Positions 9,434-47,296 of a DNA stretch of 64,000 bases are shown one piece after another. Source of the DNA: an uncultured Planctomycetota bacterium. Lineage in GTDB: Bacteria > Planctomycetota > Planctomycetia > Gemmatales > Gemmataceae. The notes beneath the pieces were generated by a model, which ran no database searches, had not been told where the DNA came from, and worked only from the letters and a program-made list of their open reading frames with translations. The stretch spans positions 448,001-512,000 of the forward strand of contig CAWKHF010000001.1 in assembly GCA_963849325.1 (NCBI GenBank), read 5' to 3'. The translations under genes were made by a program, and so were the position numbers. Position 1 is the first letter of the stretch; every line of letters starts with the position of its first letter.

Positions 9434-11766
9434 CTAGCTCCTTGTTCGTTTCCACCCTGTGCTGACATCATAAAGTTGAACGGCGAGGCTCATTGGGACA
9501 TGAACGATCTGTGATTCTTGCGACGCCTGGTCAATAGAGTAACCATATCGCTTGGGAACCTCAACGATCCGTTGCCCTAATTCAGGCTGCAGTTTCCGAA
9601 GCCGTCCCCGGCGCTGTCCAGGATCGGATAGCGCGTTCGCTTCCCGGAACTGCCGCCAAACGTCGGCGTCGGCAATGTCAACTTCGACGAAGTGCGCAAC
9701 CGCATCCTGACGTTCGTCGATGAGTCGAACCGCTTTGTCTTGGTCCTTTGCATCGATTCCTTCCCCACGGAGAGAGGCAAACTCCCACTGCTGAACCGCC
9801 TCCATGACCTTGTGAAAGGTGTCCGACCCGGTTCGGCTGGCGACGAGCCTGAAATATTCACCCACGCTCTCTTGGAGTCTTGGCTCGGGTACGGGCGTCC
9901 CTTGACCGGCAGCTCTTTCCAGAACCTCTCGCGGCACCCATCTCCTTGTTGCCATAGATCAGGTTGCCGGTATCTCCTTCCACTCTGACCAGGAAAACCT
10001 GGCCGCGGCGTCCCGTGCCGTGCCGGTTACACCGTCCGGCGGCCTGAACCACGGCGTCTAGGGGGGCCAGCGCTCGGAAAACCACGTCGAAGGACAGATC
10101 GACACCTGCCTCCACCACCTGAGTGGCGATGAGAAGATGCGGCCTACCGTGGCACTTTACGATCTGTTGTAAGATCTTCTTCCGGTCCAGCGGTCGCAAG
10201 TTTGTGGAAAGGTGAAAGACTGGATTATCGGAAACGCCGGGCAGCACCTTACCAAGGCGCATAGGTCGAGGGCTTCCTGGATGGTGTTCACGATGACAAG
10301 GCAAGACGGCTGCTTCGGGTCCGTTACCACATTGCGAATCCGATCAGCCAAGGCGACGAGGCTCACTGGCTGCCCCGTCTGCACATGGAGGTCGTAACGG
10401 TCGAATGCAACCGCCAGCGTTTCAGCCAAGGTCGGGCGCAGCTCGCTCACATCGGTTGCCTCGAAGATGGCCGGTTGGGTAGCCGTTACCAGCAGTACAT
10501 CGGTTCCCCATTGATCGCTCAGTGCTCGCAGCGCGGTGTTGATAAGCCGCCAGAACTTGGCGGGGATGGCTTGCACCTCGTCAAGGATTAAGATGGAACC
10601 AGCCAGGCGGGCAAATCGCCTCGTGTCGGCGACAGTTCCGTGGAACAGGGCGTTTACGACCTGGACGAACGTAGTGCAGATGATGTCGGCTCGCCATCCT
10701 TCGACCCAACTCCGAGCAAGCGACTGCTCGCCGCTCCGCGCCAGCTCGCCCGGCTCCGCGACGTGGTGGTGAACTGCCAGAGTGCTTTCGTCTGGCTCGT
10801 CATCTCCCCATATGCGGCGCAGCACAGACGCGTTCTGGTCGATGATGCTTGTAAACGGCAGCGCGTAGACGATCGGGCACGGGGGAAGGCCAGCGCCAAT
10901 GCGCGCCTCGCGACGCCGGAGCGCCCACCCCAGGGCCGCGAGGGTCTTCCCCGCCCCAGTGGGAACCGTCAAGCTCCATAGGTGGCCCGAGTCGAGCTGG
11001 TCGGAGGTTTGCCCGATCCACGGCGGCCTGATACACGTGTTCTCGTGCCTGAACGACACGCGGGTCGGCCGCTGGACCGAAGTTGGCGGCGGTTCGGAAC
11101 CGCTCCAAGTGGGCAATCGTGAATCGAAGGGGTGCTTTGAAGAGATCAGGTGCGAACCCTGTCGCGGAATCTCGATCTGCCTCAATCAACAGGCCGAACC
11201 AACGCAGCGCGTCCTGGAACCTCTTCATGGCGGCCAACCCGGATGGCCCTTGCCGAAAAGCGGTAGACGAGCTGCACCCGCAGCTTGGCCCATCGCAAGT
11301 CGAGGTCCGGCTTCTGGACCGGCTCGCCAAGACTTGCGGCAAGCCAGGTCGCCGCGCCTTCAAGATCCAGGGCTTGAAGTTGCTTCGCCCACAGGCCACG
11401 CGCCACATCGTCGGATGGGGGCAGTGATTCCAGCGCGTTCTTCAACCCCGTGTGGTGGTGCGCCACCATCAGATACGCCAAGACCGTTTGGTCTATGGTC
11501 AGGCCATGAGCGGCGACCTTGGGTAACAGGTGGTTAAGCAGCCAGACGGCCCCAAGGTGGGCGTGCTGCTTCAACCGGAGATCGCTGACAGGTTGACCCT
11601 TCAGGTAGTGCTGGAAGTGTTCTGTCCCTTTTGCCACGTCATGGAACAGGCCGGCGATCCGACCCAACCAGCCACAGGCGGTTAGCCGATTCGCCACGTC
11701 TTGAAGGTGGCCGGTCAGGGGCTTGCCTGGGTGCGATTCACAGAGCCGAAAAGCAGGTGCCATCAT
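9434..11766 (-). CDS. cas3: Cas3 HD nuclease-helicase (split by several apparent frameshifts)
   Basis: Across consecutive ORF pieces: N-terminal SHPGKPLTGHL..FHDVAK..HAHLG..HHTGL, Walker A VPTGAGKT, YALPFTSIIDQ, ILDEVQ, TATQP, ATQVVEAGVDLSF and QAAGRCNR. Confidence 0.93.
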
Positions 11767-12475
11767 CGCACCTCCAATACGTGCGCATGGTAGCCGTGAT
11801 CGAGCCGCCGGTCGTTTCAAGTAGGTACTCTTCGTACCGCTCCACCTGCCGCGTCGGCAGCATTTCGGCCGGCATGCGAATCCGCTGGTAGACGGCTTCC
11901 TCGTCCCAACGAATGTCCTGTAGATCCGCGGTGCGGATGGGCGATACAAAACGCTGATGCCCGGCCCCGTCGCGGACCTCCTCCGCCTGAACAGTTCGGA
12001 CCACATCCCCGAACCATGCGATCATCCATGCCAGACCGAGGCAAGGGGTGTAATTCGTCATGCCCCGGCGCAGGGTCGTCGCCAACCGCGAACCGAGTTC
12101 GGGATGGCTGAACCAAACCCGATACCGTGGCTCGCGGATGATCTCATACCGCATGATCGTATGCGGGTTCACCGACTTGGGCCGGAAGGTCTGGATGCCA
12201 AGCACGGTCGGCGTTCCCTTGGTGTCGAGAAGGTTGAGCGAAACGTGCCCGGTGCGCAGCGGCGCGAGCATCTGGAGGGCGAATATCGCCTGGGAATCCC
12301 GAAACTGCTCCAGGGAATCATTCTTCGGCAGCCCCAGCACCGCCCCGACGAGACCACAAAGCGCCGTTCGCGGCGGCGCCGGGAAGCTCAGCGCCGTCGT
12401 GATGGCGTACGGCCGCCGGAAGTGGGCCATGTCCGACAGCACATCGAAGACAATGAACTCGCGCGGCATGGTCAT
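11738..12475 (-). CDS. cas5: Cas5 (type I-B/Hmari-like)
   Basis: FDVLSDMAHFRRPYAITTALSFPAPPRTALCGLVGAVLG and YTPCLG; lies between cas7 and cas3. Confidence 0.93.
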   Translation of the reverse strand: MTMPREFIVFDVLSDMAHFRRPYAITTALSFPAPPRTALCGLVGAVLGLPKNDSLEQFRDSQAIFALQMLAPLRTGHVSLNLLDTKGTPTVLGIQTFRPKSVNPHTIMRYEIIREPRYRVWFSHPELGSRLATTLRRGMTNYTPCLGLAWMIAWFGDVVRTVQAEEVRDGAGHQRFVSPIRTADLQDIRWDEEAVYQRIRMPAEMLPTRQVERYEEYLLETTGGSITATMRTYWRCDDGTCFSAL

Positions 12476-13473
12476 TCCAGGTTTAGTGCTTCGGCCGGCA
12501 GGCCCAGGAAGATCCTGTCCGTCGGCTCCGAGGAAAAAGGCAAACGTTTGTCCCAGGCGTAGCGGACTCGTTCGATCCGCTCCTTCTTCCTGTCCAGGGC
12601 CGCCGCGAGTTCACCGAGTTGAAGCGCCACCTCGCGCACTTCGCGGATCTGCTCATCGCGGAGCGTCTGCCTACCTTCCTTCGCCGTTGCCGTGATGGTC
12701 AAGAACCGATCCAGCCGGCCGATGTACGCATTCGGTTCCTTGTATTCGATGACCAGCAGCAACAACGGACGCTGACCGATCTTGGATCGGCTGATGAGGT
12801 TTTTCGTCCCGTACCATATGCCTTTGTACAGTTCCTCGACATCCGCGTCCGTCAGTTTGGTCGTTGTCGCCGCTTGCTGGTTCACGATGCCGTAGAAGGC
12901 GATGAGGGCGTAGGGGAGGATGTACTCCTCGCGGAATGTCCTCTGCTGAGCGCCTTGACCTGACGCGAACGCACCGGTCCCCTTGATGAACCGTGGTTCG
13001 ACGCGGTGCAGGCTGGTACCCATTGCGAACTGAACCGGTCCTGTCAGCGTGACGCTGGAGTCTTTTTCATTTTTTTGGATTTTGGAAACCGGAATCGTGG
13101 CGCCGAAGAGCCGCACGTCGATGCACTCCTTGATGACGCCGGCCTGAATCAGGTCGCGCTTCTGTAAGACATTCGTGGCCTTTTCCCTGGCTTCCTTGGC
13201 GACCTTCTGGAAAAAGTCTTCCGCCCGGTCCTTCCCCTCTTGGATGGTGCCGTCCGGCTTCTCGATCTCCCGACAGAAGATCTCCTGCTTGCCGTAGTCA
13301 TGCAAGTAGTCGCGGATCGTGCGCTTCAGACGCACGTCGGACACTTTGGCCCGGCCGGTTTCCAGGTCCATGCGCGGCCGATTCTCGTCGTTGGGGTCGC
13401 CGTTGGGGTTGGCGTCCGTGATGTCGTAGACGAACAGAATCTCGCTGCGCCGGCTGACCGTCTCAGTCTTCAT
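12472..13473 (-). CDS. cas7: Cas7/Csh2 (type I-B)
   Basis: RSEILFVYDITDANPNGDP..NRPR, VSDVRLKRTIRDY, DVRLFG, SVTLTGPVQF, GTGAFAS and SRSKIGQRP. Confidence 0.95.
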   Translation of the reverse strand: MKTETVSRRSEILFVYDITDANPNGDPNDENRPRMDLETGRAKVSDVRLKRTIRDYLHDYGKQEIFCREIEKPDGTIQEGKDRAEDFFQKVAKEAREKATNVLQKRDLIQAGVIKECIDVRLFGATIPVSKIQKNEKDSSVTLTGPVQFAMGTSLHRVEPRFIKGTGAFASGQGAQQRTFREEYILPYALIAFYGIVNQQAATTTKLTDADVEELYKGIWYGTKNLISRSKIGQRPLLLLVIEYKEPNAYIGRLDRFLTITATAKEGRQTLRDEQIREVREVALQLGELAAALDRKKERIERVRYAWDKRLPFSSEPTDRIFLGLPAEALNLE

Positions 13474-15383
13474 GGATTCGTTTCCTCACTGGTTGCGGGT
13501 AAGGTTCCTTCGTCTTCCTGTTCCTTGGCGAGCCTAGATCGCAGGGCGTGCCCCAGGGCGAAGTAATAGGAGATGTCGTCCGGGCCCAATGTCCAGCGTT
13601 CCGCCGTCGCGGCCAAAGCGGAGGCAGCGCAGCTCAGCAATCCGCTGACGATGCGCTCCTTGTCGGGGCCATATGCCTTGGCTTTGTCCTTGGCGGCGAT
13701 GAACAATCGCTGAACGTCTGGTTGGTTCAAGCGGAAGCCCTTATACTTCCCCTCGAAGGGCGTCGATCCGCGCACCAGGCTCTGGATCGTCTCGATTCGT
13801 CCGCAGCACGCCCCGACCAGGAAGGCTGCCTGGGCAGCGGGGTCGGTACGAAGCCGGCTGGTTTCCGGCGCTTGCTGGAAGAAGTGGCGGACACGATCCG
13901 CCTGCTCGTTACCTCCGTAGTCCACTATCATAGTCGGCTGGCTCCTTTCGTTGTCTCCTCTTGTAAGTTCCTCAAAAAACAGAAGCGACCGGAAGAGATC
14001 GGCGAGCCTGAACGGCCAAGCCTTGCCCTCCAAGTAGTCTTCTTGAACCCAACGCATCCCGATCTCGACCATGCGGTCGGCGCGATGTGGTCGGATCTCC
14101 AAGGCTGGCGAGTGGCTGAAAGAAAGTCATCGTCGAAGGTGCTACCGCCGCGTGCCGCAGGATAGATGTTTCTGAAGCAGCCGAAGGTAAACCTCCCTTC
14201 GGTGAAGGTCTTTGGGCTCGGCGGTTGAAGCCAGGGATGACGATCAACCCGATCCTGCGCACGGAAGAGTTCCCGGAATCGGGACGGTAGTAAGCCGAAC
14301 ACGGTAGAGCGCTGGCCGGAACGACTGCGGGTCGGGTTGGTAAAAGAGCAGGTCGAGTTGTAGCCGGTTGTTCTCCTCCGCAATGATCTCGAACAGGTCG
14401 TCCTCCGCATCCGTGAGCCGTTTCGATGCCTTGCGATCCACACGAGCGCTGGCTAATCGGTTCAGGGATTGGTAGGTGTCGGTCGCTGCCAGCCGCACCG
14501 AGGCCGGCAACATCAGATACTTGAAGCCGTAGTAGTTGAAAGAGAGATCCCTTTTGATTCGTTCACCGGAGAAATCAACCTTGTCACAGCACTCGCGACA
14601 GGCGGGAAAGTTCCGCCAGGCGTCCAGCGCATCGAAACCTCCTGACACAGAGCCGGGTTTGTCCAGCGTGTAAACCTTGAACTGCTGGATTTGGAGCAGG
14701 CCAGATACCTCGGCATCCCGTCTGCCGCAGATACAGCACTGACCCACGCCCTTGACATCACCCCCTATGCCCTTCTTCTTTGATGCAGCTTCCGTCCCTT
14801 TGCGGACTAGCGCCTGCTGGAAGGCTTTGAAGTCACCAACCCATCGGGCCTCGCCTTCCGAAGGCCGCCAGGCCACCGAGAGGATCGCTGGTTTCGTCAG
14901 ATCGGGGTGGGCTTCCCGCAAGCGGATGAAGATGGCCGATCGAGGATCGCTGCCCGCTGACCCCTGTTTGTCCTTGGGAGACTGCAAACGGTCGCGCATG
15001 ACGGCAAGCGCCTCGCACTCGCATGTCGGTAGGTCTTCGCACTGCTCCAACGCTTCATTGATGCTGCGAGCAAGCCGGCTGAGTTTCTTGCCGATTTCCC
15101 CATCGGCCGTGTTCTCCTTGCCCTTCTTGACAGTCGCCATTCCGGTCGTCGGCGTCGCGTCCCACCCGTTCGGCGGTCCTGGTCGGTAGAGGCAGCGCAA
15201 ACGGCGACCCTCGTCGTATTCGTCCACCTGCACCCCCTCAAAGCCGTCGGATGAGAATACGAGCAGCAGGATTTCCTTGGTGCGAAATTTGGCCGACGGG
15301 TCGGCCGCATATTGGATCAGCTGGTCCTTGACCCCTTCTCGTTCGAGGTAGAACTGGCCGAGTTCGGCGAATTGATGTATCAC
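13470..15383 (-). CDS. cas8b: Cas8b/Csh1 (TM1802-like) large subunit, frameshifted near 14290 and 14100
   Basis: C.ICG Zn motif, FKVYTLDKPG..SGGF..AWRNFPAC.EC and C-terminal AAFLVG..Q...PF...YYFALG; lies immediately upstream of cas7. Confidence 0.88.
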
Positions 15384-15550: not shown

Positions 15551-15598
15551 GTCCTACAGCCGGGCCCGCGAGCATACAAGGGCGGTAGCAGAAATCGC

Positions 15599-15710
15599 CT
15601 TCTCCACGGTCTTCGGGCCGTGGCCGCTTTGAAGCAGGCGTCTGCCAGTGGGACAGTTGACCGACCATAGTGAGTTCTCCACGGCCTTCGGGCCGTGGCC
15701 GCATTGACAG
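15599..15710 (+). CRISPR. Mini-array 1 (2 repeats, one 38-nt spacer), opposite orientation to the main array
   Basis: CTTCTCCACGGTCTTCGGGCCGTGGCCGCTTTGAAGC (15599-15635), spacer 15636-15673, GTTCTCCACGGCCTTCGGGCCGTGGCCGCATTGACAG (15674-15710). Confidence 0.93.
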
Positions 15711-16408: not shown

Positions 16409-16693
16409 TTACACCACCACAACCACATCCTTCGCATCGGCCGCCTCCGTCGGCCGGCCGAGCGCCTCGATCGCGTTCACGCACTTCGCGCACAGCGGGA
16501 TGAACAGCACCTGATCCTGCTCCAAGTTGATGAGATCATACAGCCGCGACCGCAAACGTACAAAGTCGGTAGCGGACAAGCGACACAAAAACACCGAATA
16601 TTGCTTGCGGTAGCCGAAGTCCTCGCACACCGTCGCCACCTTGCGCAGACGTTTCGGATCGCTGATGTCGTAGGCGACGAGGTAGCTATCCAA
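16409..16693 (-). CDS. cas2: Cas2
   Basis: [25 protein letters not shown], 94 aa. Confidence 0.96.
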
Positions 16694-16742: not shown

Positions 16743-18462
16743 TCACCGCACCGTGAAGCCCGTGTACGCCGGCACCGAGCCGCGCACGTACGCGGCCAGC
16801 ATCCGCGCCTGCACCTCCAGCATCCGCGAATAGCTCATCTTGTAGCCGTACACCGGGTGCGTCACCACCGTCGCCTTCCGCTGCTCGTAGGCCTGGAAGA
16901 ACTTCCGCCGGCCCGAGTCCGTCAGCTGACACGCCTCGCGCCACACCAGGAAATCGTCCGGCGTCAGCATCTCGTTGTTGATCAGCGTCAGCACCACCGA
17001 GTCGGCGATCACCGGGCGGAACTCCTCCATCAGGTCCAGCGCCAGCGACGGCTTGCCGTGGCGGTTGGAGTGGAAGAAGCCCTTGTACGGGTCGAATCCC
17101 ACCGTGCAGACCGCCGCGAAGCAGTCCTTCGTCAGCATCGCGTAGGCGAACGACAAGCAGCGCGTTCACCGGGTCGCGCGGCGGGCGGCGGTTGCGCGTC
17201 GTGAACTCGAAGCCGCGGCCCGGCGGCTGCACCTGCAGGAAGCGGCCGAACTCGCCGAAGTACAGCGCCGCTCCCTGCCCCTCCAGCCCCAACACCGTCT
17301 CCAGCGGACGCGGCACTGTCCAACCGCCGGATCAGGTCCGCCAGACCCCGCGCGGCCGGCTCGTCGCTGCCGCGGTCGCCGTCGCCGCGCAGGCTGCGCA
17401 TCAGCAGCGCCCGCTGGTTGGTGAGCTTGGCCCGCACCACCGCCTTCGACAGCGTCAGGCACTCCGCGGCGTCGGCGAAGCGGCGGAACTGCGCCTCGCG
17501 CAGCCCGACGTTCTTGCGCTCGGCCGGCGCGAACGTGCCGATGAACCGGCCGTAGCCCGTCAGGTAGGCCACCGGGATCTCGTTCGTCACCAGCGTCTCC
17601 AGCGCCTGCGTCGAAACCTGCACGTTGCCGAAGACCACCACCTGCCGGATCGCGTGCATCGGCACCCGCGTCACCTCCTGGCCGTCCTTGCGGACGACCA
17701 GATGCTCGCTGCGCTTGCCGACGTGGCTGCCCGGCTCCTGCACGTACAGCACCGCGCCGTCGTCGGACTGCGGGATCACCCGCGTCAGGCCGGGCGGCGG
17801 CGAGGCCGTTTCCTCGGCGGCCGGCGGCAGGCCGATCTGGTAGAGCGTCTCCTCCGGCAGACAGACCGGGGCCAGCGAGCAGCCGAAACAGCGGTGCCGC
17901 AGCTCCGCCGGCAGCGGGTCCGGCGGGGCGTCCAGGGCAGACAGCCGCCGGCATTCGTCGATGGCCGTGCGCGTCTTCGCCCGCAGCTCGTCGCGTGAAG
18001 CGGACCTCGACGCGCTCGCGCGTGCCGGCGTAGAACTGGAAGCCGCGCTGCACCGGCGCGCCGAACGCTTCTTCCATCAGCAGCGCCTGGCCGCACAGCT
18101 GCACGGCGTCGTTGTCCCAGGTCGTCGGCCGGCCGTCGTCGTCGCGCGGGGCGGAGCCGTGCTTGGTCTCCACCGGGTAGGACACGCCGTCCTTCTCCTC
18201 GATCACGTCGAGGACGCCGCTGATGCCGAGCGTCTCCGACGACAGGTGGACGCCGCGACTGCGGTTTGCATCGCCTTCCTTGCGCGTCTTGTTGGCCAGT
18301 TCCGGCTCATCGACGCGGCGGTGATCGAACAGGCCGGCCTCGACGTGTTCGTTGGTGCGGCATCACGGCATCGACGTACTGGAGGTAGTAGAGGCGCGGG
18401 CAGTAGGTGACCTGGTTCAGTGCGCGCAGGGGGATCATCTGGGCGTCGGTCGTTGCGGTCAT
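16743..18462 (-). CDS. cas1: Cas4-Cas1 fusion (type I-G-like), frameshifted in this sequence
   Basis: Cas4 part: [30 protein letters not shown] and a C-terminal Cys cluster. Cas1 part: [48 protein letters not shown] and LEVQAR. Confidence 0.93.
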
Positions 18463-18490: not shown

Positions 18491-20407
18491 TTAATCCACC
18501 ATCCGCAGCTTGCAAGGCGCCGGATCCATAGCCACCAGGAGCGGCCGAGAAAGGTGCGTGAAACTGACCACCGCCTGACCCGGCGCCAGTCCCGGGATGC
18601 GGCTCCACAGCGACTCGTCGATGCCGCTGATGGTATGTCGCAGGTTCATTAACACCTGCGGGTCGGTCAGCTTGTGCAGCACAAAGTTGTTGCACAGCGA
18701 CAAAACCTGACGGGGCAAGTGCGCGGGTAACTGTGTCACGAACACCAGCCCGAGCCAGCGCTTCCGGCCGCGCTTGGCGATGCGGGCCACTTGCTGGAAC
18801 AGCGTGTCCATCCGCTCGATGCGATCCGCACTGAGGAACTCGTGCGCTTCCTCAATGATGAGCAGGACGCGAGGAACCGGCGGGTCCTGCCCCGCGGCCT
18901 TCGCCTTCTCGTAGCGGCGGTAGGCATTTTCTTGGGCTTTCTGAACGCCGCGCATCAGATCGGCGATCGCAAAATTCGCCAGTTCCGTCATGCCGGTGTC
19001 CGAAAGGTCCACCACGGAAACCTGACCCGGTGCGATGAGCTGGTCGTAGTTCAGCGGCGGAGCGCCGCGTTTTTGCAAATGGCGATCAAACACTTTCAAG
19101 CGATTCAGCCGCCAGAGCAGGCTCTTGACCTTGCCCCACGAGGACGCACTGCTCAGTTCCTTTGCCTTGATGTGTTTCTCCAACGCCGCGCGGCCGGCGT
19201 CGGTACGGAGCACGGCGTTGTATGGCTCGAAGCTCGTTTTGCTCACCGTCGCCAGACACTTGCCGACCACGTCGAGCAGCAGCGACAGCGTCAGGCGGGG
19301 CCAGCCGCGCTCGAACTCGTCGATGCGGAGCAGCAGCTGTTCCTGCTTGTCCACTTCTTCCTTCGGCTTGTCCCGTTGTGGGAAAATGCCGAGGTCGCGC
19401 ATTATCGCCTTGGTGATTTCGTAGGCCGGAAGAAACCGCTCAGATTGAGCATCGTTCATCCCCAGCATTTCGATAACCGCGTGCGGAGAAAGCGCGGCAA
19501 ACTGGAGCGAGAACTCGCTGCGGTTTGGATGGCGCGGGTTCGTGGACTCACGACCGACAAGGTGGTACAGCCGCATGGAGTCCGCGGGGATGCCGGCTGG
19601 CGACAGGCCACGCTCCTGCAAGGCGTCCAGCATCGTGCGGTGATCGGCCGGTTCGTGCAAGTGCGTGTATTCGCCCTCGACATCCAGCAGAATGACGGTC
19701 ATCCCCACGGCCTGAGCTTGCTGGATCAAGCCCGCCACCGTCGTCGATTTGCCGCCGCCCGTTGTACCGAGGACCGCGACGTGGCGCGGCAGCACGGCCT
19801 TCTTGTCGGACGGTACGTTGACGATCACCTCGCTCGCCCCAACCACGGAACCCAGCCGGATGTCGCCATCGGTGTGCAGGACTGCGGCTACCTCCGATTG
19901 CGTCAGGGCAACGACGGGGCTATTGGGCAGCGGTCGCAGGCGCGGCGGAACCAGCGAGCCGTTCTTGAGTTCCTCGCCCAGAATCGAGACCGTCGCGCGG
20001 CCGTGGTAGGGCGGCAGATAGACGCCGCCGCGCGCCGTCACGGTGACGAGCAAATGCGAGTCGGCCCGTAGCGTGTCCGGTTCAGCAAAGGGACCGGCGG
20101 TCACGATGCCCAGGTACTTGCGCCCGTCGCAGCTCTTGATGCGCACCAGGGATTGCGACGGCGCCTGTTGGGCGTGATCGCGCGGCAGCAGGACCGTCAC
20201 GCTGCCGTCTTCGCTGCCGGGCAGGTCGAACATGGTCGCGCCGATGGCGCCTTCCCGATCCGGGTCGGGAGCCAACTCGCCGCCGGCACGGGTTACGTCG
20301 GCTTGGACCTGCTGGAGCAGATCCTCCGGCGGACGGGCGATGCCCAGGTCTTCCTGGCCGTTGTCGTGTGCCGTCCTAGGCGTTGGTCGCGTTGTGGGTG
20401 CAGGCAT
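18491..20407 (-). CDS. herA: HerA/FtsK-family ATPase (DUF87)
   Basis: N-terminal HAS-barrel-like region, HVAVLGTTGGGKS, ILLDVEGEY, LLIIEEAHEF and RIAKRGRKRWLGLVFVTQLP. Confidence 0.9.
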   Translation of the reverse strand: MPAPTTRPTPRTAHDNGQEDLGIARPPEDLLQQVQADVTRAGGELAPDPDREGAIGATMFDLPGSEDGSVTVLLPRDHAQQAPSQSLVRIKSCDGRKYLGIVTAGPFAEPDTLRADSHLLVTVTARGGVYLPPYHGRATVSILGEELKNGSLVPPRLRPLPNSPVVALTQSEVAAVLHTDGDIRLGSVVGASEVIVNVPSDKKAVLPRHVAVLGTTGGGKSTTVAGLIQQAQAVGMTVILLDVEGEYTHLHEPADHRTMLDALQERGLSPAGIPADSMRLYHLVGRESTNPRHPNRSEFSLQFAALSPHAVIEMLGMNDAQSERFLPAYEITKAIMRDLGIFPQRDKPKEEVDKQEQLLLRIDEFERGWPRLTLSLLLDVVGKCLATVSKTSFEPYNAVLRTDAGRAALEKHIKAKELSSASSWGKVKSLLWRLNRLKVFDRHLQKRGAPPLNYDQLIAPGQVSVVDLSDTGMTELANFAIADLMRGVQKAQENAYRRYEKAKAAGQDPPVPRVLLIIEEAHEFLSADRIERMDTLFQQVARIAKRGRKRWLGLVFVTQLPAHLPRQVLSLCNNFVLHKLTDPQVLMNLRHTISGIDESLWSRIPGLAPGQAVVSFTHLSRPLLVAMDPAPCKLRMVD

Positions 20408-20423
20408 AGCTGTTCTCCTCTCC

Positions 20424-21698
20424 TCAATCGTGACGAGTCGTGCGTTCGCTGAAGTAGCGCCAGGGCGCACCGGCCGCAGCGTAGGCCGTTTCGGTCAGGT
20501 GGTGCAGACTGCCGCCGAACACCGAATCGCAAACGTGATGGGCCAAGTCGATCAGCAGCGGGAAGCCGCGCTCTTCTTGGAACATGCTGTCGGCCAGCAC
20601 GATATGGGCGGCGAAGTGAGCGTGGTCCACATGGGCGTAGAAGAGCTGCGCTGGAGCCAGGATCGAGGCGCGGTACAGGCCAACCACCACTTGCGACGCG
20701 ACACGCTCGATGAAGCGTGGTATCCATTCCGGCGGGGACAGCCGCTCGCCGTCCCAGAATAAGTCCCCGGAGGATTCCATCGTGAATCGGCGTTGTTGGA
20801 ACCAGCCTTCCAGACGCGGAGCCAAGTTGCCGAGGATGGCGTAATGCAGCGGAGGCAGCGCCTGGCCAATGGTCAGCGCCAGCAGTTCACGGGGCTCACT
20901 GGCCACGAAGACGAATTTGCCGTAACCCTCGATCAGTTCGCGCATCATCCCGGTCGCGGCGACCATCAATTCCAGGATGTCGGCGCCAGTCAGCAATTCG
21001 TAAGTGATCGGATTGCCGTGGCCCATCCGCCAAACCGCCCTCGATTGGCGGAGGAGAATGGCCCGTTCGGCGTAATCCATGACAGCCTTCCTCGCCAATT
21101 CGCCGAGTTGGTCGCTCGGCGTTCCGTGGTTGAGGGCGGCTCGTTGGTCGCGGCGTCGGAGCAGCTCTAATACCTCATTAAGGTCCGCGGGGCCGCGTTG
21201 CCGCAGGTCGCGGCGGAAGAGTCGCTGCTGCCATGTGCCTTGATCGCCAGCGTAGGATACCAGCGAAACGCCGACCTGGTAGATCGTCAGAGGCAGCGTA
21301 GCATGTACCTGAACCGTCCCGTCACACGCTTCCACACCGCCGTTAAATAACAGGCCGCGATGAATGAGGGCGAGAATGTCCATGTTCGCGGTGAAGACGC
21401 CGCAGCCCGGTGCCGAAGCTGGGTCGATAAGCTTTGGGAAAACTTCGCTGCGAATGCACCGTTGGTACTCGTCCTCCTGGGCGATGGCCTCACGCACTTC
21501 GCGCTCGATACGCGGATACTCCTGCGCCAGGTCTCCTCCCAGCCGCCATGTGTTCACATCGAGAACCCGTTGCAACTCCTCACCGAAGCTCGCTCGAAAC
21601 TCGGCGGCGGTTGCCGGTTCCGAAGGCAGGCGCGTCGGCGACCGTGCCGCGGCCGACACGGGGGATGCTGCATCGTCTCGGGATGTGGTGGTTGCCAT
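20424..21698 (-). CDS. nurA: NurA-like (RNase H fold) nuclease
   Basis: VEACDGT resembles the NurA AVDGS motif and GFPLLIDLAH resembles GYP..L..AH; directly upstream of herA. Confidence 0.72.
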   Translation of the reverse strand: MATTTSRDDAASPVSAAARSPTRLPSEPATAAEFRASFGEELQRVLDVNTWRLGGDLAQEYPRIEREVREAIAQEDEYQRCIRSEVFPKLIDPASAPGCGVFTANMDILALIHRGLLFNGGVEACDGTVQVHATLPLTIYQVGVSLVSYAGDQGTWQQRLFRRDLRQRGPADLNEVLELLRRRDQRAALNHGTPSDQLGELARKAVMDYAERAILLRQSRAVWRMGHGNPITYELLTGADILELMVAATGMMRELIEGYGKFVFVASEPRELLALTIGQALPPLHYAILGNLAPRLEGWFQQRRFTMESSGDLFWDGERLSPPEWIPRFIERVASQVVVGLYRASILAPAQLFYAHVDHAHFAAHIVLADSMFQEERGFPLLIDLAHHVCDSVFGGSLHHLTETAYAAAGAPWRYFSERTTRHD

Positions 21699-21780
21699 CG
21701 TTCGTTCTCCCACGCGCTTTGCCGGCACCCTCGCGCCTGACTATACTCTCCTGGATTAAAGTGGTCGCGCCCGTCCCTTG

Positions 21781-21807: not shown

Positions 21808-21834
21808 ACCGCATCGCCTTGCCACCTCGACGAG

Positions 21835-21946
21835 GTTCTCCACGTTCTTATGAACGTGGCCGCATTGAAGATCCCTCACTACTTCCCGACATGCGCGACA
21901 AAGTTCGACATTCTCCACGGTCTCATGGCTGTGGCCGCATTGAAGT
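21835..21946 (+). CRISPR. Mini-array 2 (2 diverged repeats, one 38-nt spacer)
   Basis: GTTCTCCACGTTCTTATGAACGTGGCCGCATTGAAGA (21835-21871), spacer 21872-21909, ATTCTCCACGGTCTCATGGCTGTGGCCGCATTGAAGT (21910-21946). Confidence 0.88.
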
Positions 21947-21984: not shown

Positions 21985-22719
21985 TCAGGAGCGCAGTCGC
22001 TGGAGCAACGGATCTTCCCGGACGGGCGGTAAGAGGAGACGGCTATAGTCCTTAGCCTGCTCCTGCGGCAGACCGAAATCGGCTTGCAACACTTCCGCAA
22101 GTCGGATTCTTCCTTCCACACCCGAAATCGACCCGGCTCGCGCCCATACGTCGGCGGCAGGCGCCAGCAGTTCGTAGGCGACCTGATCGGCTTCCTCTTC
22201 GGCCAGCGTGATGGTCGCGTGAAGCACTTCCCGGCGCGGGCCACGCCGCATCAAATGCAGATGAAAACCGAGGGAAATGCTTTTCAAGAGCGCATGAAGA
22301 CACTCCTCTGGCGTCGGCGGGCGCTCCCCGTCCAGGACTTCCACGATTCGTTTCCCCAAGTAGCGGCACGCCCGCCGCCGAGGATGCCAGTAATGTCGCA
22401 GAAAATGAGCCAACTCGTGTGCCAGTGAGAAACGCTGGTCGTCATCGCTGTCGGTTCCGTCGAGAAAGATCAGTCCATGACCGAAATGGGCCGCCAGGCA
22501 AGCCCGCAACGGACGATCCGCTTCGTCGCAACGACAGGCGATCCCGTTCCGGCACAACCAGTCACGGACACTATCAAGCCGTAAATGCGGCAGCAAGACG
22601 ATGGATACCGGCAGCGCCCGGACTATGGGCCGGCGTAATTCACGAGGGAAGGATTCGTCCAAGCCCGCAGCCGCCCAGAACTCACGGATCAATTCCGCGA
22701 TCCACAGCGGCACTCTCAT
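21985..22719 (-). CDS. ImmA/IrrE-family Zn metallopeptidase
   Basis: QRFSLAHELAHF (HExxH) followed by EEEADQVAYELLAP. Confidence 0.85.
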   Translation of the reverse strand: MRVPLWIAELIREFWAAAGLDESFPRELRRPIVRALPVSIVLLPHLRLDSVRDWLCRNGIACRCDEADRPLRACLAAHFGHGLIFLDGTDSDDDQRFSLAHELAHFLRHYWHPRRRACRYLGKRIVEVLDGERPPTPEECLHALLKSISLGFHLHLMRRGPRREVLHATITLAEEEADQVAYELLAPAADVWARAGSISGVEGRIRLAEVLQADFGLPQEQAKDYSRLLLPPVREDPLLQRLRS

Positions 22720-23099
22720 GACTTCGCTCCTTGCGGCGGAGTGTCTTCCGTCGTATTGTCTCGCGCCGCTAACAGGAATCCTTTCTCGCTGTTTTGGCCG
22801 CCGGCGCCAATCCGAAGCCGCAACAGGCTGTGACCCCGCCTGGCAACCTCGGCCAAGACCTCAGCATCGAGCGAGAAGCGCTGCGCGATCTTTTCGACAT
22901 CTTGCCAGAACAGAGGGGCCTGCGCTCGGGGCATCCGGCACAGGCGCAGATGGGTGAGGATTCCCTCGGAACAACCGAGCCGGATGGCCAATCCGGCATC
23001 CTCAAGCTGTTCGCTTCGGGCATACTCCGCCAGCGCGCTGGCGAAAAAATCGGGAGCATCGGCGACACGCAGGGCCAGGTGTTCCAGGTACGGATTCAT
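22716..23099 (-). CDS. Small hypothetical protein (possible HTH / anti-sigma / peptidase substrate)
   Basis: 127 aa, ATGA overlaps with both neighbours; contains LAIRLGCSEGILTHLRLCRMP and LLAARD. Confidence 0.7.
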   Translation of the reverse strand: MNPYLEHLALRVADAPDFFASALAEYARSEQLEDAGLAIRLGCSEGILTHLRLCRMPRAQAPLFWQDVEKIAQRFSLDAEVLAEVARRGHSLLRLRIGAGGQNSEKGFLLAARDNTTEDTPPQGAKS

Positions 23100-23731
23100 G
23101 CTTTTCTCCCGGCTCGCTCCAGCATCTTCTTTAACCGATCCTTGTTTCGCTTCACCTGCCGGAATTGCTCTTTCGCAGGCAGGTGCAACAAACCGTAGAG
23201 TTCGGCGAAGATTTTGGTCCGGCGTTCCTTCCGCAAAATCAAATCCAGCGCGCGGGAGTCGGTTTCGGACAAACCTTGGCAGACGGAATTTGAGATGGAG
23301 TTCATCGCGCTCTCGTCTTCCTCAGCCACTCGCATCGGGAGTGACGGATCGTCATGGCGTCCCAGATACTTCCCGGCCTCCTGCGAAAGTTCGACACTTT
23401 TCCACGAAACCCGGCCTTTGTTGTGTCTCCGTTCTTTATCGAGAAGGTTGCGCAAGTCTCCGCGGGCTGACATGCGCAGGTACACTTCCAGGGTCTGCCG
23501 TTCCGGAGAGTACGACCGCGGATTACGAATCAAAGCCAGCAGGGCATCCTCCGCAGCCTCGATGCGGACATCCGGAGGCACGCTCGCGTCGGTTTTGGCC
23601 AACCAGGCGACGAGCGGTTCCAGGTAGGCGTCAGCCAGATCATTCGGGGCAGTTGGATCATCAGCCAGGAGGCGCTGATGAATTTCAAGCGCGTTCGGTT
23701 GCCTGGGTGTTAAGGCGGTAGGACGGGCCAT
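23096..23731 (-). CDS. Divergent ECF/sigma70-like RNA polymerase sigma factor
   Basis: Region 2-like EAAEDALLALIRNPRSYSPERQTLEVYLRMSARGDLRNLLDKERR and a C-terminal region 4-like HTH (FAELYGL..VKRNKDRLKKML). Confidence 0.7.
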   Translation of the reverse strand: MARPTALTPRQPNALEIHQRLLADDPTAPNDLADAYLEPLVAWLAKTDASVPPDVRIEAAEDALLALIRNPRSYSPERQTLEVYLRMSARGDLRNLLDKERRHNKGRVSWKSVELSQEAGKYLGRHDDPSLPMRVAEEDESAMNSISNSVCQGLSETDSRALDLILRKERRTKIFAELYGLLHLPAKEQFRQVKRNKDRLKKMLERAGRKA

Positions 23732-28671: not shown

Positions 28672-29703
28672 ATGTCCGACGTACCGACGACGACGAACGC
28701 CTTGACATTGACAACGTTGTCACCCTCGAACACGGCGCCGCCGGCCGGATCGGCAGGCGGCGCCGAAGCCCTCGACGTGGCCGGCTTCCTCGGCCATCTC
28801 CAACACGAACGGCGATTGTCGGGTAACACCCTCGCCGCCTACGGTCTCGCCCTTCGCCAGTTCGCCGAGTGGGCGCAGTCCGGCGGCCTGGCTTGCCCCC
28901 TCCGGCCCGAATCCCGCGAGCTGGGCGGATTCCTCGAACACCTCCGCGATCAAGGACTATCCGCATCCAGTATCAGGCAAAAGCTCGCCGCCGTGAGGAC
29001 GTGCTATCGCTACCTGCATGTCCAGGGCCGCATATCGACGAAGACGCTGGGAGTTGTGCTCGGCACCGAGGGTCCGGCCGCGTGGCAGCGTCTACCGGCG
29101 GTCCTCGGCGCGGAGCAAGCGGCCCGATTGGTGCAAGCTCCGCTGCCCTCGGATCGCTACCACTTGCGCGACCGCGGAATTTTGGAGTTCCTGTACGCCT
29201 CCGGCTGTCGCGTGAGCGAGTTGTGCGATCTGACTTTGACGGACCTGCGCTTGTCGGATCGCTATGCCGAAGTGCTCGGCAAGGGCAACAAGCCTCGCCT
29301 CGTCCTGCTGGGCCGGCCGGCCGTGGCGGCCCTCGACGCCTACCTCGGCGAGTTGCGGCCTCGGATGGTGCGGTTGGCGCCGGAATCGCCCTGGCTATTC
29401 GTGAGTCGCGCCGGGCGGAGGTTGACGTGCGAAATGGTATGGACGCTCGTGAAGCGCTACGCCCGGCGGATGGGCCTGGAAGGCGTCAGCCCGCACGTCT
29501 TTCGGCACAGCTGCGCAACGGCGTTGATGAATGGTGGTGCAGGTCTGCAAACTGTCAGCAACTTGCTCGGGCACGCCAGCATCAACGCGACGCAGCGATA
29601 CCTTCACGTCGATGAGGAACGGAAGCGGGAGCTGCACCGCCTCTATCATCCCCTCGGCACGACGCCCTCCGAAACGGCAACGGTCCTTCCCGACGCCGCT
29701 TGA
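28672..29703 (+). CDS. XerD-like tyrosine recombinase
   Basis: LSGNTLAAY, RDRGILEFLYASGCRVSEL, GKGNKPR, SPHVFRHSCAT and LLGHASINATQRY. Confidence 0.92.
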   Translation: MSDVPTTTNALTLTTLSPSNTAPPAGSAGGAEALDVAGFLGHLQHERRLSGNTLAAYGLALRQFAEWAQSGGLACPLRPESRELGGFLEHLRDQGLSASSIRQKLAAVRTCYRYLHVQGRISTKTLGVVLGTEGPAAWQRLPAVLGAEQAARLVQAPLPSDRYHLRDRGILEFLYASGCRVSELCDLTLTDLRLSDRYAEVLGKGNKPRLVLLGRPAVAALDAYLGELRPRMVRLAPESPWLFVSRAGRRLTCEMVWTLVKRYARRMGLEGVSPHVFRHSCATALMNGGAGLQTVSNLLGHASINATQRYLHVDEERKRELHRLYHPLGTTPSETATVLPDAA

Positions 29704-29731: not shown

Positions 29732-30621
29732 ATGCAGCAAGCCCTCGACGGGTTCATTCGCCACATGGAAACGGAGAAACAGGCTTCGGACTGCACGGTT
29801 CGAGCGTATCGCGCAGACCTGCGCAAGCCGTAAACTTCTTCCGCTCCCAGCTGGGGACGCCTACGCCACGTCCCGAAGATCTGACGGCCGGCCTCCTGAG
29901 CGATTACGTCGCTTGGCTTGGCCGGCAAGGCTACGCCGCGAGCACAATACGGCGGCGCATGGCGGCCGTGCGATCATGGATTCGCTTCCTGGTTCAGCGA
30001 GGCTTGCGGTCAGACGATCCGTCCGCAAGCGTGTGCGGCCCGCGTCCGAATCGACGGCTCCCGCATTTCCTGACTGTCGCCGAGGTGGTGCGTCTGCTCG
30101 ACGCGCCGCCGGCCGACGCTCTTATCGGCGTGCGTGATCGCGCCGTACTGGCCGTGTTGTATTCCACCGGCGTCCGAGGCGGCGAGTTGACGGGCTTGAA
30201 CGTCGAGGACGTAAACGTAGACGCCGGCACGGCCAAGATACGGGGCAAGGGTCGGATTGAACGTCTGGGCATCCTGGGGCCGCCGGCCGTGGCCGCACTG
30301 TCGCGTTGGCTGAGCCGGCGCGACGAGTTGGCAGGTTCGTCGGAACCAGCCCTCTTTGTAGCCTGTACGGGTTCGCGCCTGGACTGTCGCTCAGTGAACC
30401 GACTGATCAAAAAACACGCGACCTGTATCGGTGTCGATAAACGCACTTCGCCGATCTCGTTTCGGCACAGCTTCGCCACGCACCTACTTAACGGCGGGTG
30501 TGATTTGCGTGGAATCCAAGCCATGCTTGGGCACTCTTGCCTTTCAACGACCCAGCGATACGCGCACGTTTCGACGCGGCGGCTTCGGAACGCCTACGAT
30601 CAATCGCACCCTCGCGCCTGA
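29732..30621 (+). CDS. XerC-like tyrosine recombinase (frameshift ~29828)
   Basis: SDCTVRAYRADL, RRLPHFL, RDRAVLAVLYSTGVRGGEL, GKGRIER, SPISFRHSFATHLL, LGHSCLSTTQRY and YDQSHPRA. Confidence 0.88.
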
Positions 30622-31527: not shown

Positions 31528-31731
31528 TTACGCTGCCGGACTGGCCGCCACTGCTGGTTCCGGCATGATTAAGCCGAAACAAAACCAACTCCGGCAGCCG
31601 TGCCGCCGACAGTCTTCCAGGTGGGCGAACAAGGGGTTGTCGCCCGTCCAGGACACTATCGCCGCCGTCTCCTGGCCTCGGTCCCAGCCGGGACGCGAAG
31701 GCTGATCCGTCAGAGCGAATTCAAACATCAA
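31528..31731 (-). CDS. Small hypothetical protein
   Basis: Translationally coupled to the upstream ParB-like gene. Confidence 0.45.
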   Translation of the reverse strand: MMFEFALTDQPSRPGWDRGQETAAIVSWTGDNPLFAHLEDCRRHGCRSWFCFGLIMPEPAVAASPAA

Positions 31732-32918
31732 GCCGCCTCCGTTTCAGGTGTGTAAGTCGCCGTCTGTCGCAGCTTCTCCGGCAATCGATCCCATGTCACC
31801 TTCGGTATCCAGCCCAGACCTTTGCAGGTCTGGCACCCTGGAGCGACGGTCTCTCGGCAGCATGGGCAAGCCGTGTGCGGCTGCCAGTGGGCCAGCTCGC
31901 GGCGGATATTGGTCAAGTCCGCGGAGTGATACCGTTCGACGGACTCGCCGTCTCTGGTTTCCCTGGTCATTTTCAGGTGATTGGCCCGAAGTAGTTCGGC
32001 TCCCTCCATGCCGCCGAGCCGGTCGATCATCTTCGCCGCCTGGCCGAGATGCCGGTCAAGCTCCGAGAAGAAATCGACAGACTCCATCGCCTTCCGCGCT
32101 GCCTCGGTTCGGCAGGGAAAGCCCAGCGCGTCCTTGACAGCTCCGGTCGCTTCCTCCTTCGCCGTCGCCGGCGTGTCCGCCTTCTGACGCTTGCCGATCC
32201 GGCTTACGTCCATCTGGCGACCGTGCGCATCGACTCGAATGTCAGGCGCCGGCGCGGGCGGAGCGGGAGCCGTCGCCGAGGCGGGTGTCGAGCCGGCCAT
32301 CGGGGCCATTCGCGTCGGCGCGGCCGTCGCGGGAGGAACCGGGTCCGGCTCGGGAGTATCCCAGGGAGTGCGCGTCGATGCAAATGTCTCGTTCGGCGCG
32401 AACCAGTCGCCTGCCGAAGCGCTCTCCGTCTGCTCTGCGGAAATTTCCGCAGTGGGAGGCGATGCTTTCCGGCACTCGGCCAGATGGTAGCGCACGAGCT
32501 TTTCGTCCACCTTGCACGCCTTGGCGATGGCACGATTGCTCAGATGTGGATTGAGACGATAGGCCGTCAAGATCGCATTGCGTCGATCCTCAGCCGTCCG
32601 CCGCAAGCCGTGCGACGCATTGGCACCGAGGGCGTGCCACAACGCCGCCGTCCATTCGCCAGAGTGGACCTCGCACGGGATCTCTGTGCAACCCGCCTCC
32701 TGTGCGGCCTGGCATCGGTGGTGCCCATCGGCCAGGTGATAGACCTTGCCGTCGAAGAAGACAATGACGGGGGGCAACGTTGCCGGCCATGTGCCTTCGT
32801 CACCGAGCAACTCCATCAAGTCATCGACGTGCGCCCGGTTCGTCTCGGCACGCACCTGGAGCCCCTCGGTGCGAATCTGGGCCAGGGGGACAAGCTGCGG
32901 TTGAGAAGTGCGCGACAT
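31728..32918 (-). CDS. ParB/Srx N-terminal domain protein with HTH, Pro/Ala linker and C-terminal Zn finger
   Basis: LPPVIVFFDGKVYHLADGHHRCQAA, ANASHGLRRT..DRR, LSNRAIAKACKV and CPCC..CQTCKGLGW. Confidence 0.85.
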   Translation of the reverse strand: MSRTSQPQLVPLAQIRTEGLQVRAETNRAHVDDLMELLGDEGTWPATLPPVIVFFDGKVYHLADGHHRCQAAQEAGCTEIPCEVHSGEWTAALWHALGANASHGLRRTAEDRRNAILTAYRLNPHLSNRAIAKACKVDEKLVRYHLAECRKASPPTAEISAEQTESASAGDWFAPNETFASTRTPWDTPEPDPVPPATAAPTRMAPMAGSTPASATAPAPPAPAPDIRVDAHGRQMDVSRIGKRQKADTPATAKEEATGAVKDALGFPCRTEAARKAMESVDFFSELDRHLGQAAKMIDRLGGMEGAELLRANHLKMTRETRDGESVERYHSADLTNIRRELAHWQPHTACPCCRETVAPGCQTCKGLGWIPKVTWDRLPEKLRQTATYTPETEAA

Positions 32919-47048: not shown

Positions 47049-47296
47049 GCGTCTGTTCCCGAAGTAGGTCCGGCGAGCCGAGCCGGACCCCTGTGCCGCT
47101 CGGCTCGCGGCACCTACCAACTACGCCACGCCAACCTCGAAAGCGCTTTAGCGGACCTACGCATCCGGACGCTCGGCCCGCGCCTGCATGAAGTCCGCCA
47201 AAGAACATGCCCAAAACCATTTCCGCATCCGTGAAGGCGACGCGGGAAGCGACCCGCGAGCGGAGGCGCTCGCGGGCCGACTTGCGAGGCTCGGCG

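Follow-up and report, generated by a model that had tools for sequence, protein, structure and literature searches.

A candidate protease-gated sigma/anti-sigma switch ahead of a HerA-type ATPase, recurrently joined to CRISPR adaptation genes

Introduction

How bacteria time the expression of immune genes that are costly or harmful to themselves is an open question, and it is raised directly by a three-gene cassette on a stretch of 64,000 nucleotides (nt) from an uncultured Planctomycetota bacterium of the family Gemmataceae (GenBank assembly GCA_963849325.1, contig CAWKHF010000001.1, positions 448,001 to 512,000 of the forward strand; this whole stretch is called the window). The cassette is located upstream of a type I-B cas locus and of a CRISPR array that holds at least 112 repeats, and its minus strand encodes a sigma factor of 211 amino acids (aa), a protein of 127 aa and an M78 peptidase of 244 aa. 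A first-pass annotation had proposed that the 127-aa protein is an anti-sigma factor or repressor cleaved by the peptidase, so that the freed sigma factor would transcribe the defence genes of a type I system. We find a real, conserved regulatory module in which the theme of an M78 controller is joined to a sigma factor as the output, and this is what is new. We consider it probable that the cassette works as a protease-gated sigma/anti-sigma switch.

Results

A conserved five-gene unit

The sigma factor gene (P0001; 23096–23731) overlaps the gene of the 127-aa protein (P0002; 22716–23099) in an ATGA at 23099–23096, and this gene overlaps the peptidase gene (P0003; 21985–22719) in a second ATGA at 22719–22716, all on the minus strand. 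The three ATGA-joined genes of the first-pass annotation were thus recovered, with their open reading frames (ORFs) confirmed and both junctions read. Downstream on the same strand follow a conserved neighbour of 434 aa, termed protein X (20424–21728), and a HerA-type ATPase of 659 aa (18491–20470).

We analysed this arrangement in two samples. The first is anchored on the sigma factor and comprises 47 genome loci from several phyla, which with the window make 48 sources; the second is anchored on the peptidase and comprises 80 metagenome loci, where only contigs long enough are counted as testable. Clustering of neighbours gives the conserved order sigma factor, 127-aa protein, M78 peptidase, protein X of about 420 aa and HerA ATPase. 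By profile search the N-domain of P0002 is encoded directly after the sigma factor in 46 of the 48 sources. The two exceptions are sigma homologues fused to PD40 beta-propeller repeats, which have no separate anti-sigma-like gene (L026:7962-9923, 653 aa; L032:7683-9974, 763 aa). A short P0002 form followed by an M78 gene is present in 25 of the sources, and a long P0002-like form without an M78 gene in 21. In the metagenome loci a P0002-like gene was found in all 64 testable cases, the sigma factor in all 53, protein X in 47 of 49 and HerA in 34 of 35. The order of the three cassette genes recurs in 25 of the 48 sigma-anchored sources and in every testable peptidase-anchored locus, far more than chance would give.

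Nothing among 72,556 plasmid and 50,697 phage records matches the sigma factor, and in a sample of 400 other genomes of the phylum none matches the P0002 profile at E ≤ 1e-10. The unit therefore appears to be rare, chromosomal and patchily distributed. In soil metagenomes the system is widespread: of 600 stretches that match the pattern, at least 216 code for a peptidase relative.

The ATPase is assigned the HerA central and C-terminal P-loop domains by its Pfam matches (DUF87, 67.4 bits against a cut-off of 23.2, E = 2.6e-18; HerA_C, 42.8 bits against 22, E = 3.8e-11), and this is further supported by PADLOC (HerA, 9.5e-30; mad8, 1e-21). It also matches the TraG, TrwB and FtsK P-loop models, which would suit an integrated mobile element whose ImmR/ImmA-like immunity module governs excision or transfer and whose HerA pumps DNA in the manner of FtsK. 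Two tyrosine recombinase genes (28672–29703 and 29959–30621, plus strand) indeed lie 5–7 kb away and, together with a ParB-like gene (31728–32918, minus strand), occupy the region 5–9 kb upstream of the cassette. However, the gene of the housekeeping GTPase YchF sits between the cassette and these genes, recombinases do not belong to the conserved unit in other loci, and the plasmid and phage records lack the sigma factor, which makes a mobile-element function very improbable.

Protein X is possibly NurA-like, a lead that comes from ESM Atlas features alone (score 0.97 to clusters with NurA in 21–64% of their members). None of 17 family members matches the NurA Pfam model PF09376 at E ≤ 1, a profile search of the Protein Data Bank (PDB) returned chance matches only, and hhalign against one bona fide NurA (genome G207) gave a probability of 0.1. 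At one locus (L042:12702-15742) the genes past HerA encode a metallophosphoesterase and an SMC-like ATPase, an order that resembles the archaeal herA-mre11-rad50-nurA cluster.

A divergent sigma factor

P0001 is a divergent sigma factor of the extracytoplasmic function (ECF)-like type, in agreement with the first-pass annotation. Its family, with proteins of about 211 aa, yields 139 matches at E ≤ 0.001. P0001 itself scores 17.4 bits with the Pfam model Sigma70_r2, under the cut-off of 24; of 42 aligned family members, 30 have a match to this model (best E = 8.8e-7). In the AlphaFold model (mean predicted local distance difference test, pLDDT, 80) residues 12–106 superpose on region 2 of Escherichia coli sigmaE (4lup_A) with Z = 12.0 and a root mean square deviation (rmsd) of 1.8 Å over 91 residues. 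Every match listed by Foldseek for this model is a sigma70-family factor or a complex containing one, while a search of PDB sequences with the family profile gave no match.

The C-terminal half speaks less clearly for a canonical factor with both sigma2 and sigma4 folds. None of the 42 family members matches Sigma70_r4, and the C-terminal helices 131–206 (pLDDT 78–92) are covered solely by full-length superpositions such as that on 6jbq_F (Z = 10.4, 147 residues), whose rmsd of 16.6 Å is high. Thus the sigma2 fold stands, and sigma4 is seen only in these high-rmsd superpositions.

The 127-aa protein is predicted to bind sigma region 2

The family of P0002 is large, as a library of 1.84 billion proteins yields 794 matching representatives (E ≤ 0.001). 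Its structural model has a pLDDT of 87 overall, with six helices in residues 3–100 at about 95 and a disordered tail at 53–62. Residues 1–92 are homologous to the N-domain of FecR-type proteins encoded directly after sigma homologues (BLASTP E = 8e-8). Comparison of the P0002 N-domain with these N-domains by hhalign gives a probability of 99.6 and an E-value of 3.6e-24, and an invariant L-x-L-C-x-x-P signature is common to both. In the FecR-type proteins beside sigma homologues the P0002-like N-domain is the cytoplasmic head, joined to a hydrophobic segment and a FecR domain, as in the textbook picture of membrane anti-sigma factors. A hydrophobic stretch continues from 8 of 10 aligned long-form N-regions. 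All eight scanned long forms from Chloroflexota (L014, L021, L031, L034) are FecR-domain proteins of 400–570 aa; the long forms of L017 and L043 have no Pfam match.

Prediction of the complex, a check that the first-pass annotation had suggested, gave a clear positive result. Sigma factor and P0002 reach an interaction prediction score from aligned errors (ipSAE) of 0.88 against 0.00 for the best of three controls, with 100% contact agreement between runs and a partner pLDDT of at least 78. This mark is attained by 116 of 157 solved complexes and by 2 of 215 mismatched pairs, a calibration that is only rough here, as custom unpaired family alignments were used. On the sigma side the predicted interface comprises residues 24–41 and 57–69, including the conserved DPTA loop and the helix with A59, A60 and A63; on the side of P0002 it comprises residues 2–19, 50–58, with the invariant C54 and P57, and 67–74. 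Together with translational coupling to the sigma factor and a tail motif tied to the M78 peptidase (see below), the homology to FecR-type N-domains and the predicted complex point to P0002 being a soluble anti-sigma factor, with a helical N-domain (residues 1–100) predicted to bind sigma region 2.

The rough calibration of the complex score counts against this assignment, as do the fold searches. In Foldseek no PDB entry matched at E ≤ 0.001 (best E = 0.16), and the highest Z in VIA-align over 48,161 chains was 5.2. The weak matches that do appear are Xre-type helix-turn-helix (HTH) proteins (Foldseek ranks 1 and 2, E = 0.16–0.24), among them the CapH N-domain at rank 2 (E = 0.24; VIA Z = 3.9), and HTH_31 is matched in 9 of 45 family members, all weakly (best E = 0.0018). 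Because of this resemblance to Xre-type DNA-binding domains including that of CapH, P0002 may have a DNA-binding role; the ESM Atlas features also score 0.78 to HTH_3 clusters.

No known fold can be assigned to P0002 from these searches, and neither the Foldseek nor the VIA lists contain an anti-sigma domain. A zinc-binding class I anti-sigma domain (ZAS) was rejected as a candidate, since the sequence reads H50-LRL-C54-RM-P57 and lacks the second Cys of the H-x3-C-x2-C motif; only C54 and P57 are invariant.

The Xre-like matches raise an alternative: P0002 could be an Xre-family repressor that sits on the DNA motif before X-herA (described below) and is removed by the peptidase, as in a CapH/CapP-type switch, with the sigma factor as an extra requirement or a passenger. 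The match of the peptidase to PADLOC capP (8.9e-7) fits this, and so does the presence of a sigma70-family gene beside capH and capP in 24 CBASS (cyclic-oligonucleotide-based antiphage signalling) systems, to which Lau et al. assign no role (10.1101/2022.04.27.489752). However, the same N-domain also heads FecR-type membrane proteins, and the putative recognition helix (residues 50–58) is itself a predicted sigma contact.

A promoter-like motif accompanies the sigma family

The intergenic regions between the M78 and X genes share a directional two-block motif, TGTCGAACTTT-N10-12-CGGGAA(G/T/C)(T/A)A, of ECF type and in short form TGTCGAACTTT-N10-12-CGGGAAGTA. It lies 20–70 nt before the start codon of X, with a Shine-Dalgarno sequence in between, and can be read as a -35 element TCGAAC and a -10 element GGAAGT with a spacer of 16 nt, an ECF-like layout. 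The pattern TGTCGAACTTN{11,15}GGAA has exactly two matches in the 8.16-Mb assembly, both on the minus strand and both in the cassette, while the reversed pattern as a control has one. One match, P_X (21883–21910; score 31.4 with the position weight matrix, PWM, described below), is upstream of X-herA; the other, P_int (23370–23396), lies within the sigma gene, in the part encoding the linker between sigma2 and sigma4, and upstream of the genes for the predicted anti-sigma factor and the peptidase.

We trained the PWM on 18 M78-X intergenic sites and scanned with a threshold score of at least 14. Across the 47 genome loci and the window (1.4 million positions) it gave 79 hits: 23 before X, 22 inside the sigma ORF and 19 between the sigma gene and the long P0002-like gene in loci without a peptidase, with 9 plus-strand and 6 minus-strand hits elsewhere. 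The 80 metagenome loci, outside the training set, gave 118 hits, of which 48 are before X, 8 just after M78 at contig ends and 40 inside the sigma ORF, the others being 12 on the plus and 10 on the minus strand. The motif thus accompanies the sigma family in three gene contexts (before X, inside sigma, and between sigma and the long P0002-like gene), and because it tracks the family in this way we read it as the candidate cognate promoter. To be set against this, neither site is universal: of the 57 testable metagenome loci, 48 have P_X and 38 have P_int. In one Lindowbacteria metagenome-assembled genome (MAG; L024) the motif lies before herA instead of before X.

For P_int the constraint appears to act on the DNA, since GGAA is retained despite changing residues and codon phases and rare codons are fixed at the site. 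P_int has a fixed offset of about +335 nt in the sigma gene in 22 sources, in the low-confidence sigma2-sigma4 linker. Its first block always encodes V-E-L, whereas the second keeps GGAA though the encoded residues vary (GKY, GNY, RNI, RNN, PEH, AEY, GNM and others), and this GGAA falls in two codon phases across the sigma genes. In the close relatives that keep VEL...GKY (9 of 25 genes only, by a strict protein pattern) Leu is encoded by CTT in 7 of 8 cases against a background of 0.11, and Tyr by TAT in 8 of 8 against 0.34.

These features also bear on the repressor alternative. An operator-like reading does not sit well with a motif that is directional, consists of two blocks 10–12 nt apart placed 20–70 nt before start codons, is not an inverted repeat and tracks the sigma family into peptidase-free loci (the 19 sites above). 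We therefore hold a CapH/CapP-type repressor switch to be unlikely, and return to P0002 as the predicted anti-sigma factor.

Strong copies of the motif also occur just upstream of the sigma gene at L066 (position 2290, PWM score 31.3) and L069 (position 6897, score 30.0); these two loci would have positive autoregulation, unlike the window. A sigma70-type promoter upstream of the window's sigma gene was considered and rejected, as there is one 9-of-12 match (23889–23860), with 2 sites against 1.0 ± 1.1 expected. No terminator was found between M78 and X in the window. A search of sequencing runs for this organism brought up no RNA run, and two soil DNA runs contained 8% of the words. P_X is intact and flanked by two degenerate CRISPR repeats, of which it forms the 'spacer' (mini-array 2, 21831–21945, by repeat-motif check); in the four close relatives inspected (L001, L002, L004, L046) P_X has no flanking repeats.

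The peptidase and the tail of the 127-aa protein

The peptidase of the first-pass annotation was likewise borne out. P0003 matches Pfam Peptidase_M78 (PF06114), the ImmA/IrrE-type zinc peptidase family, with 34.2 bits (cut-off 22) and carries the HExxH motif as HELAH at residues 101–105 (22405–22419), where H101, E102 and H105 are invariant in 19 homologues. In the Pfam scan no domain other than M78 was found, and thus none that would correspond to the C-terminal GAF-like regulatory domain of the CapP/IrrE subgroup. With 244 aa it is shorter than the solved IrrE and CapP chains (291–301 aa), and the profile match to IrrE (E = 0.049) is in the HExxH region. Against a close parallel with these enzymes, the PDB profile search detects no similarity to IrrE or CapP past this region (positions 82–112 only).

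Short P0002 forms end in a disordered tail with a G-phi-L-phi-A-A-R-D motif, which in the window is G-F-L-L-A-A-R-D (residues 107–114; codons at 22758–22781, minus strand). A111, A112 and R113 are invariant in 45 family sequences, and of 103 short forms 99 carry a motif of this kind and the other four a near-variant. Its presence follows that of the peptidase: among the 48 sigma-anchored sources an AAR[DE] tail and an M78 gene are both present in 23 and both absent in 21, two have an M78 gene with a near-variant tail (TARD, AARP), and two have neither a P0002 domain nor an M78 gene. In a Mycobacterium MAG (L045:3189-4298) the P0002-like domain, AARD and M78 are fused in one ORF of 370 aa, which could be a self-cleaving version of the switch.

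In the CapH/CapP pair, CapP cuts CapH between F82 and R83, before an essential Arg, and R83A blocks the cut; capH-capP fusions are also known (10.1101/2022.04.27.489752). By analogy we infer that P0003 cleaves P0002 between A112 and R113. A difficulty with this proposal is that the site lies outside the predicted sigma-binding domain, and sigma release would need an extra step. As the cut leaves this domain intact, a second step through a degron may follow; the new C-terminus ...LLAA presumably resembles a ClpXP degron of the ssrA/RseA type.

The position of the motif behind the sigma-binding domain (residues 1–100) also suits a different arrangement, in which P0002 would still be an anti-sigma factor, though cutting its tail would not by itself have to release sigma. 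The peptidase would then not be the releasing protease and would act on sigma or X or as part of a toxin-antitoxin-like pair, with another signal for release; M78/Xre pairs are indeed described as toxin-antitoxin modules (PMC10538038). The strict co-occurrence of tail motif and peptidase (23 with both, 21 with neither, 2 near-variants), the fusion of inhibitor domain, motif and M78 in L045 and the invariant Arg after small residues, as at the mapped CapH site, all argue for cleavage of the tail, and we rate this arrangement as unlikely, a shade below the repressor switch. For the claim of the first-pass annotation that the peptidase cleaves an anti-sigma factor or repressor, the anti-sigma part is thus backed by domain homology and the predicted complex, and cleavage has the indirect support of the co-occurrence of tail motif and M78 and of the L045 fusion.

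Target genes and the link to CRISPR

In the window X-herA is followed on the minus strand by a gene for a Cas4-Cas1 fusion (16746–18462, by tblastn with the intact L004 protein) within about 30 nt of HerA and by cas2 (16409–16693; Pfam CRISPR_Cas2, 6.8e-23; PADLOC Cas2, 2e-24). The type I-B interference genes lie further downstream and comprise cas8b (two pieces, 13470–15383, minus strand), cas7b, cas5b, cas3 (at least four pieces, 9434–12006, minus strand) and a Cas5-6g-like gene. The whole-assembly pattern search found no copy of the promoter motif before these interference genes. The predicted regulon is therefore X-herA-cas4/cas1-cas2, and not demonstrably the type I-B interference genes. 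The idea that the sigma factor drives the defence genes would thus apply to the motif-headed X-herA-cas4/cas1-cas2 group and not demonstrably to the interference genes.

Counting the window, cas genes follow HerA on the same strand in 9 of the 21 genome sources that reach far enough, and they do so in 10 of 26 testable metagenome loci, where detection relied on homology to a limited set of Cas queries. Cas4-cas1 follows HerA in the window and in L001, L002, L004 and L024; other loci have cas3 and cas5d (L003), cas1 and cas3 (L011), cas6 (L012) or csb1 and csb2 (L013). In L024 (12913-16530) cas4-cas1 is followed by a protein with a weak match to the C2c1 (Cas12b) helical domain (E = 5e-8). The accompanying cas genes indicate four subtypes: I-B, I-C (Cas3 and Cas5d), I-G (Csb1/Csb2) and V-B (from the weak C2c1 match). 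Adaptation genes of several CRISPR types thus adjoin the unit repeatedly, but in about 60% of loci it stands alone. A type I system as the target, as first suggested, is too narrow and right only in part, since the conserved target is X-HerA, with cas genes of several subtypes in about 40% of loci; the neighbourhood survey for defence genes accordingly finds X-HerA conserved and cas genes in a minority.

These proportions lend weight to the possibility that the unit is a self-standing defence or repair module which clusters with CRISPR-Cas in islands, so that the switch controls X-HerA only and the cas neighbourhood is functionally meaningless. No cas gene was detected after HerA in 16 of the 26 metagenome loci (with the limited Cas queries) or in 12 of the 21 genome sources, a DNA methyltransferase gene lies upstream in 13 of 33 testable metagenome loci, and other neighbours are defence- or repair-like (UvrD; a KAP NTPase with Schlafen; a metallophosphoesterase with an SMC-like ATPase). 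Yet where adaptation genes are present they are closely attached: in 6 of the 9 metagenome loci concerned the same-strand start of cas4-cas1 is 52–151 nt past HerA, and in the window it is within about 30 nt. Three loci have extra motif copies. In L095 (score 24.8) and L099 (26.3) an ORF intervenes between HerA and cas4-cas1, and the copy precedes it by about 50 nt; in L125 (23.8) the copy comes just after the cas1 match. The accompanying genes also span four subtypes. We regard a functionally unconnected neighbourhood as a serious possibility, although we would not bet on it.

The cas genes of the window are themselves damaged. Cas4-cas1 is broken by four frameshifts into five pieces, in frames -2, -3, -1, -2 and -3, which are 88–96% identical to the intact 570-aa protein of L004 by tblastn. 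This may reflect decay or local assembly errors; as the five neighbouring genes from sigma to HerA are intact, decay is favoured. The main CRISPR array (15–8175, plus strand, repeats of 36–37 nt) runs past the left end of the window and holds blocks of the repeat variants GGCCCGAAGACCGTGG, GGCCCGAAGCCGTGG and GGCCTGAAGCCGTGG; its repeat ends in ATTGAAGC in the minus-strand reading. On either side of X-herA-cas4/cas1-cas2 lies a mini-array of two repeats whose orientation is opposite to that of the main array; mini-array 1 (15595–15709) has no copy of the promoter motif. Elsewhere in the window, positions 47200–62700 are GC-rich and highly repetitive, with periods of 6, 9 and 18 nt, for example GCCGCCGTT and GGTGTC, and several very long ORFs of up to 1170 aa run across this DNA on both strands.

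Discussion

The mechanism proposed in the first-pass annotation is the best supported of the readings weighed, and it can now be put in more concrete terms. The three proteins of the cassette would be made together through translational coupling, and the N-terminal helical domain of P0002 would clamp sigma region 2 and keep the sigma factor off RNA polymerase. On a signal, which by analogy with CapP, IrrE and ImmA may be DNA damage or single-stranded DNA, the M78 peptidase would cut the disordered tail at G-phi-L-phi-A-A|R-D. The exposed ssrA-like ...LLAA C-terminus would then hand the inhibitor to ClpXP. The freed sigma factor would direct RNA polymerase to P_X and thereby to X-herA and, in this organism, cas4-cas1 and cas2. 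It would also act at P_int, where the resupply of inhibitor and peptidase would provide negative feedback.

M78 peptidases are established as controllers of neighbouring regulators. In IrrE/DdrO of Deinococcus and ImmA/ImmR of ICEBs1 the enzyme cleaves an adjacent Xre-type protein after DNA damage and so relieves control; their partners are repressors and no sigma factor is involved. The closest known system is CapH/CapP of CBASS, DISARM (defence island system associated with restriction-modification) and other loci. As here, an M78 peptidase is encoded beside a small helical partner upstream of an immune operon. CapH is cut before an essential Arg, at F82|R83, and for P0002 a cut before the invariant R113 is proposed by analogy. 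However, P0002 is predicted to bind a sigma factor instead of DNA, the DNA element is a promoter-like two-block motif and not an operator, and the proposed cut lies in a disordered tail whereas that of CapH is in the dimerisation helix. The target also differs, being X-HerA with or without cas genes, and for the peptidase the similarity to CapP and IrrE is detected in the HExxH region alone.

With regard to the sigma factor, the cassette resembles the SigmaE-RseA and FecI/FecR-type systems, where proteolysis frees an ECF sigma factor from the anti-sigma domain that holds it, as proposed here. RseA is degraded by DegS and RseP and then ClpXP, and its cleavage exposes a C-terminal ...AA degron. 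The link to the FecI/FecR type is closer still, as relatives of P0001 pair with FecR-domain proteins that carry a P0002-like N-domain. In contrast to these systems the predicted inhibitor here is soluble and has no H-x3-C-x2-C zinc motif, and its release is proposed to fall to a cytoplasmic M78 enzyme dedicated to this task and encoded alongside. The motif moreover lies inside the sigma gene ahead of the inhibitor gene, and upstream of sigma only rarely (L066, L069).

Protease-dependent release of a sigma factor is known in a CRISPR context from the type III-E system Craspase-Csx30-Csx31-RpoE. In that system the RNA-guided effector itself serves as the protease, working downstream of target recognition, whereas here a stand-alone M78 enzyme is proposed to act upstream of cas expression. 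Control of CRISPR-Cas by a sigma factor is already precedented by DdvS/DdvA of Myxococcus xanthus, an ECF sigma/anti-sigma pair that controls a defence island including CRISPR-Cas (PMC11506125). The anti-sigma domain there has three helices and bound zinc and is part of a transmembrane TPR-CHAT protein, DdvA; the targets are CBASS and type III-B, and neither an M78 peptidase nor HerA is involved. In the material reached by full-text literature searches no sigma/anti-sigma/M78 switch and no link of such a switch to HerA is described; the only mention is the one sentence of Lau et al. on sigma70-family genes beside capH and capP.

HerA/NurA pairs have been connected with CRISPR before. They are described as co-evolving with type III systems (PMC6546367) and listed among putative CRISPR auxiliary genes (PMC10910872), and in Sulfolobus Csa3a couples adaptation with nurA and herA expression (PMC5587795). 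Here, by contrast, the pair stands behind a sigma switch and beside I-B, I-C, I-G and V-B cas genes, mostly before adaptation genes, and the partner X is not demonstrably NurA.

These connections suggest a wider, tentative role of the five-gene unit as an inducible booster of CRISPR adaptation common to several CRISPR types. In such a scenario the M78 peptidase, activated by damage or an invader, would destroy a new kind of soluble anti-sigma factor, and the sigma factor would co-transcribe X-HerA with Cas4-Cas1-Cas2. X-HerA, as a nuclease/translocase, would make prespacer substrates from invader or broken DNA, a job like that of RecBCD or AddAB. Spacer capture would then be on only when foreign or damaged DNA is present. 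Taken jointly these steps are rather doubtful.

If the proposed wiring is true, an M78 enzyme frees a dedicated sigma factor with a private promoter, of which the genome has two copies, instead of removing a repressor. As every part has a clear prediction (interface residues, cut site, -35 and -10 blocks), this compact switch is directly testable in E. coli, and an orthogonal set of sigma factor, anti-sigma factor, protease and promoter could serve as a synthetic switch. The same wiring would explain the sigma genes beside capH and capP in CBASS loci. For the bacteria that carry the unit, it would give a handle on how spacer acquisition is induced and supplied with DNA.

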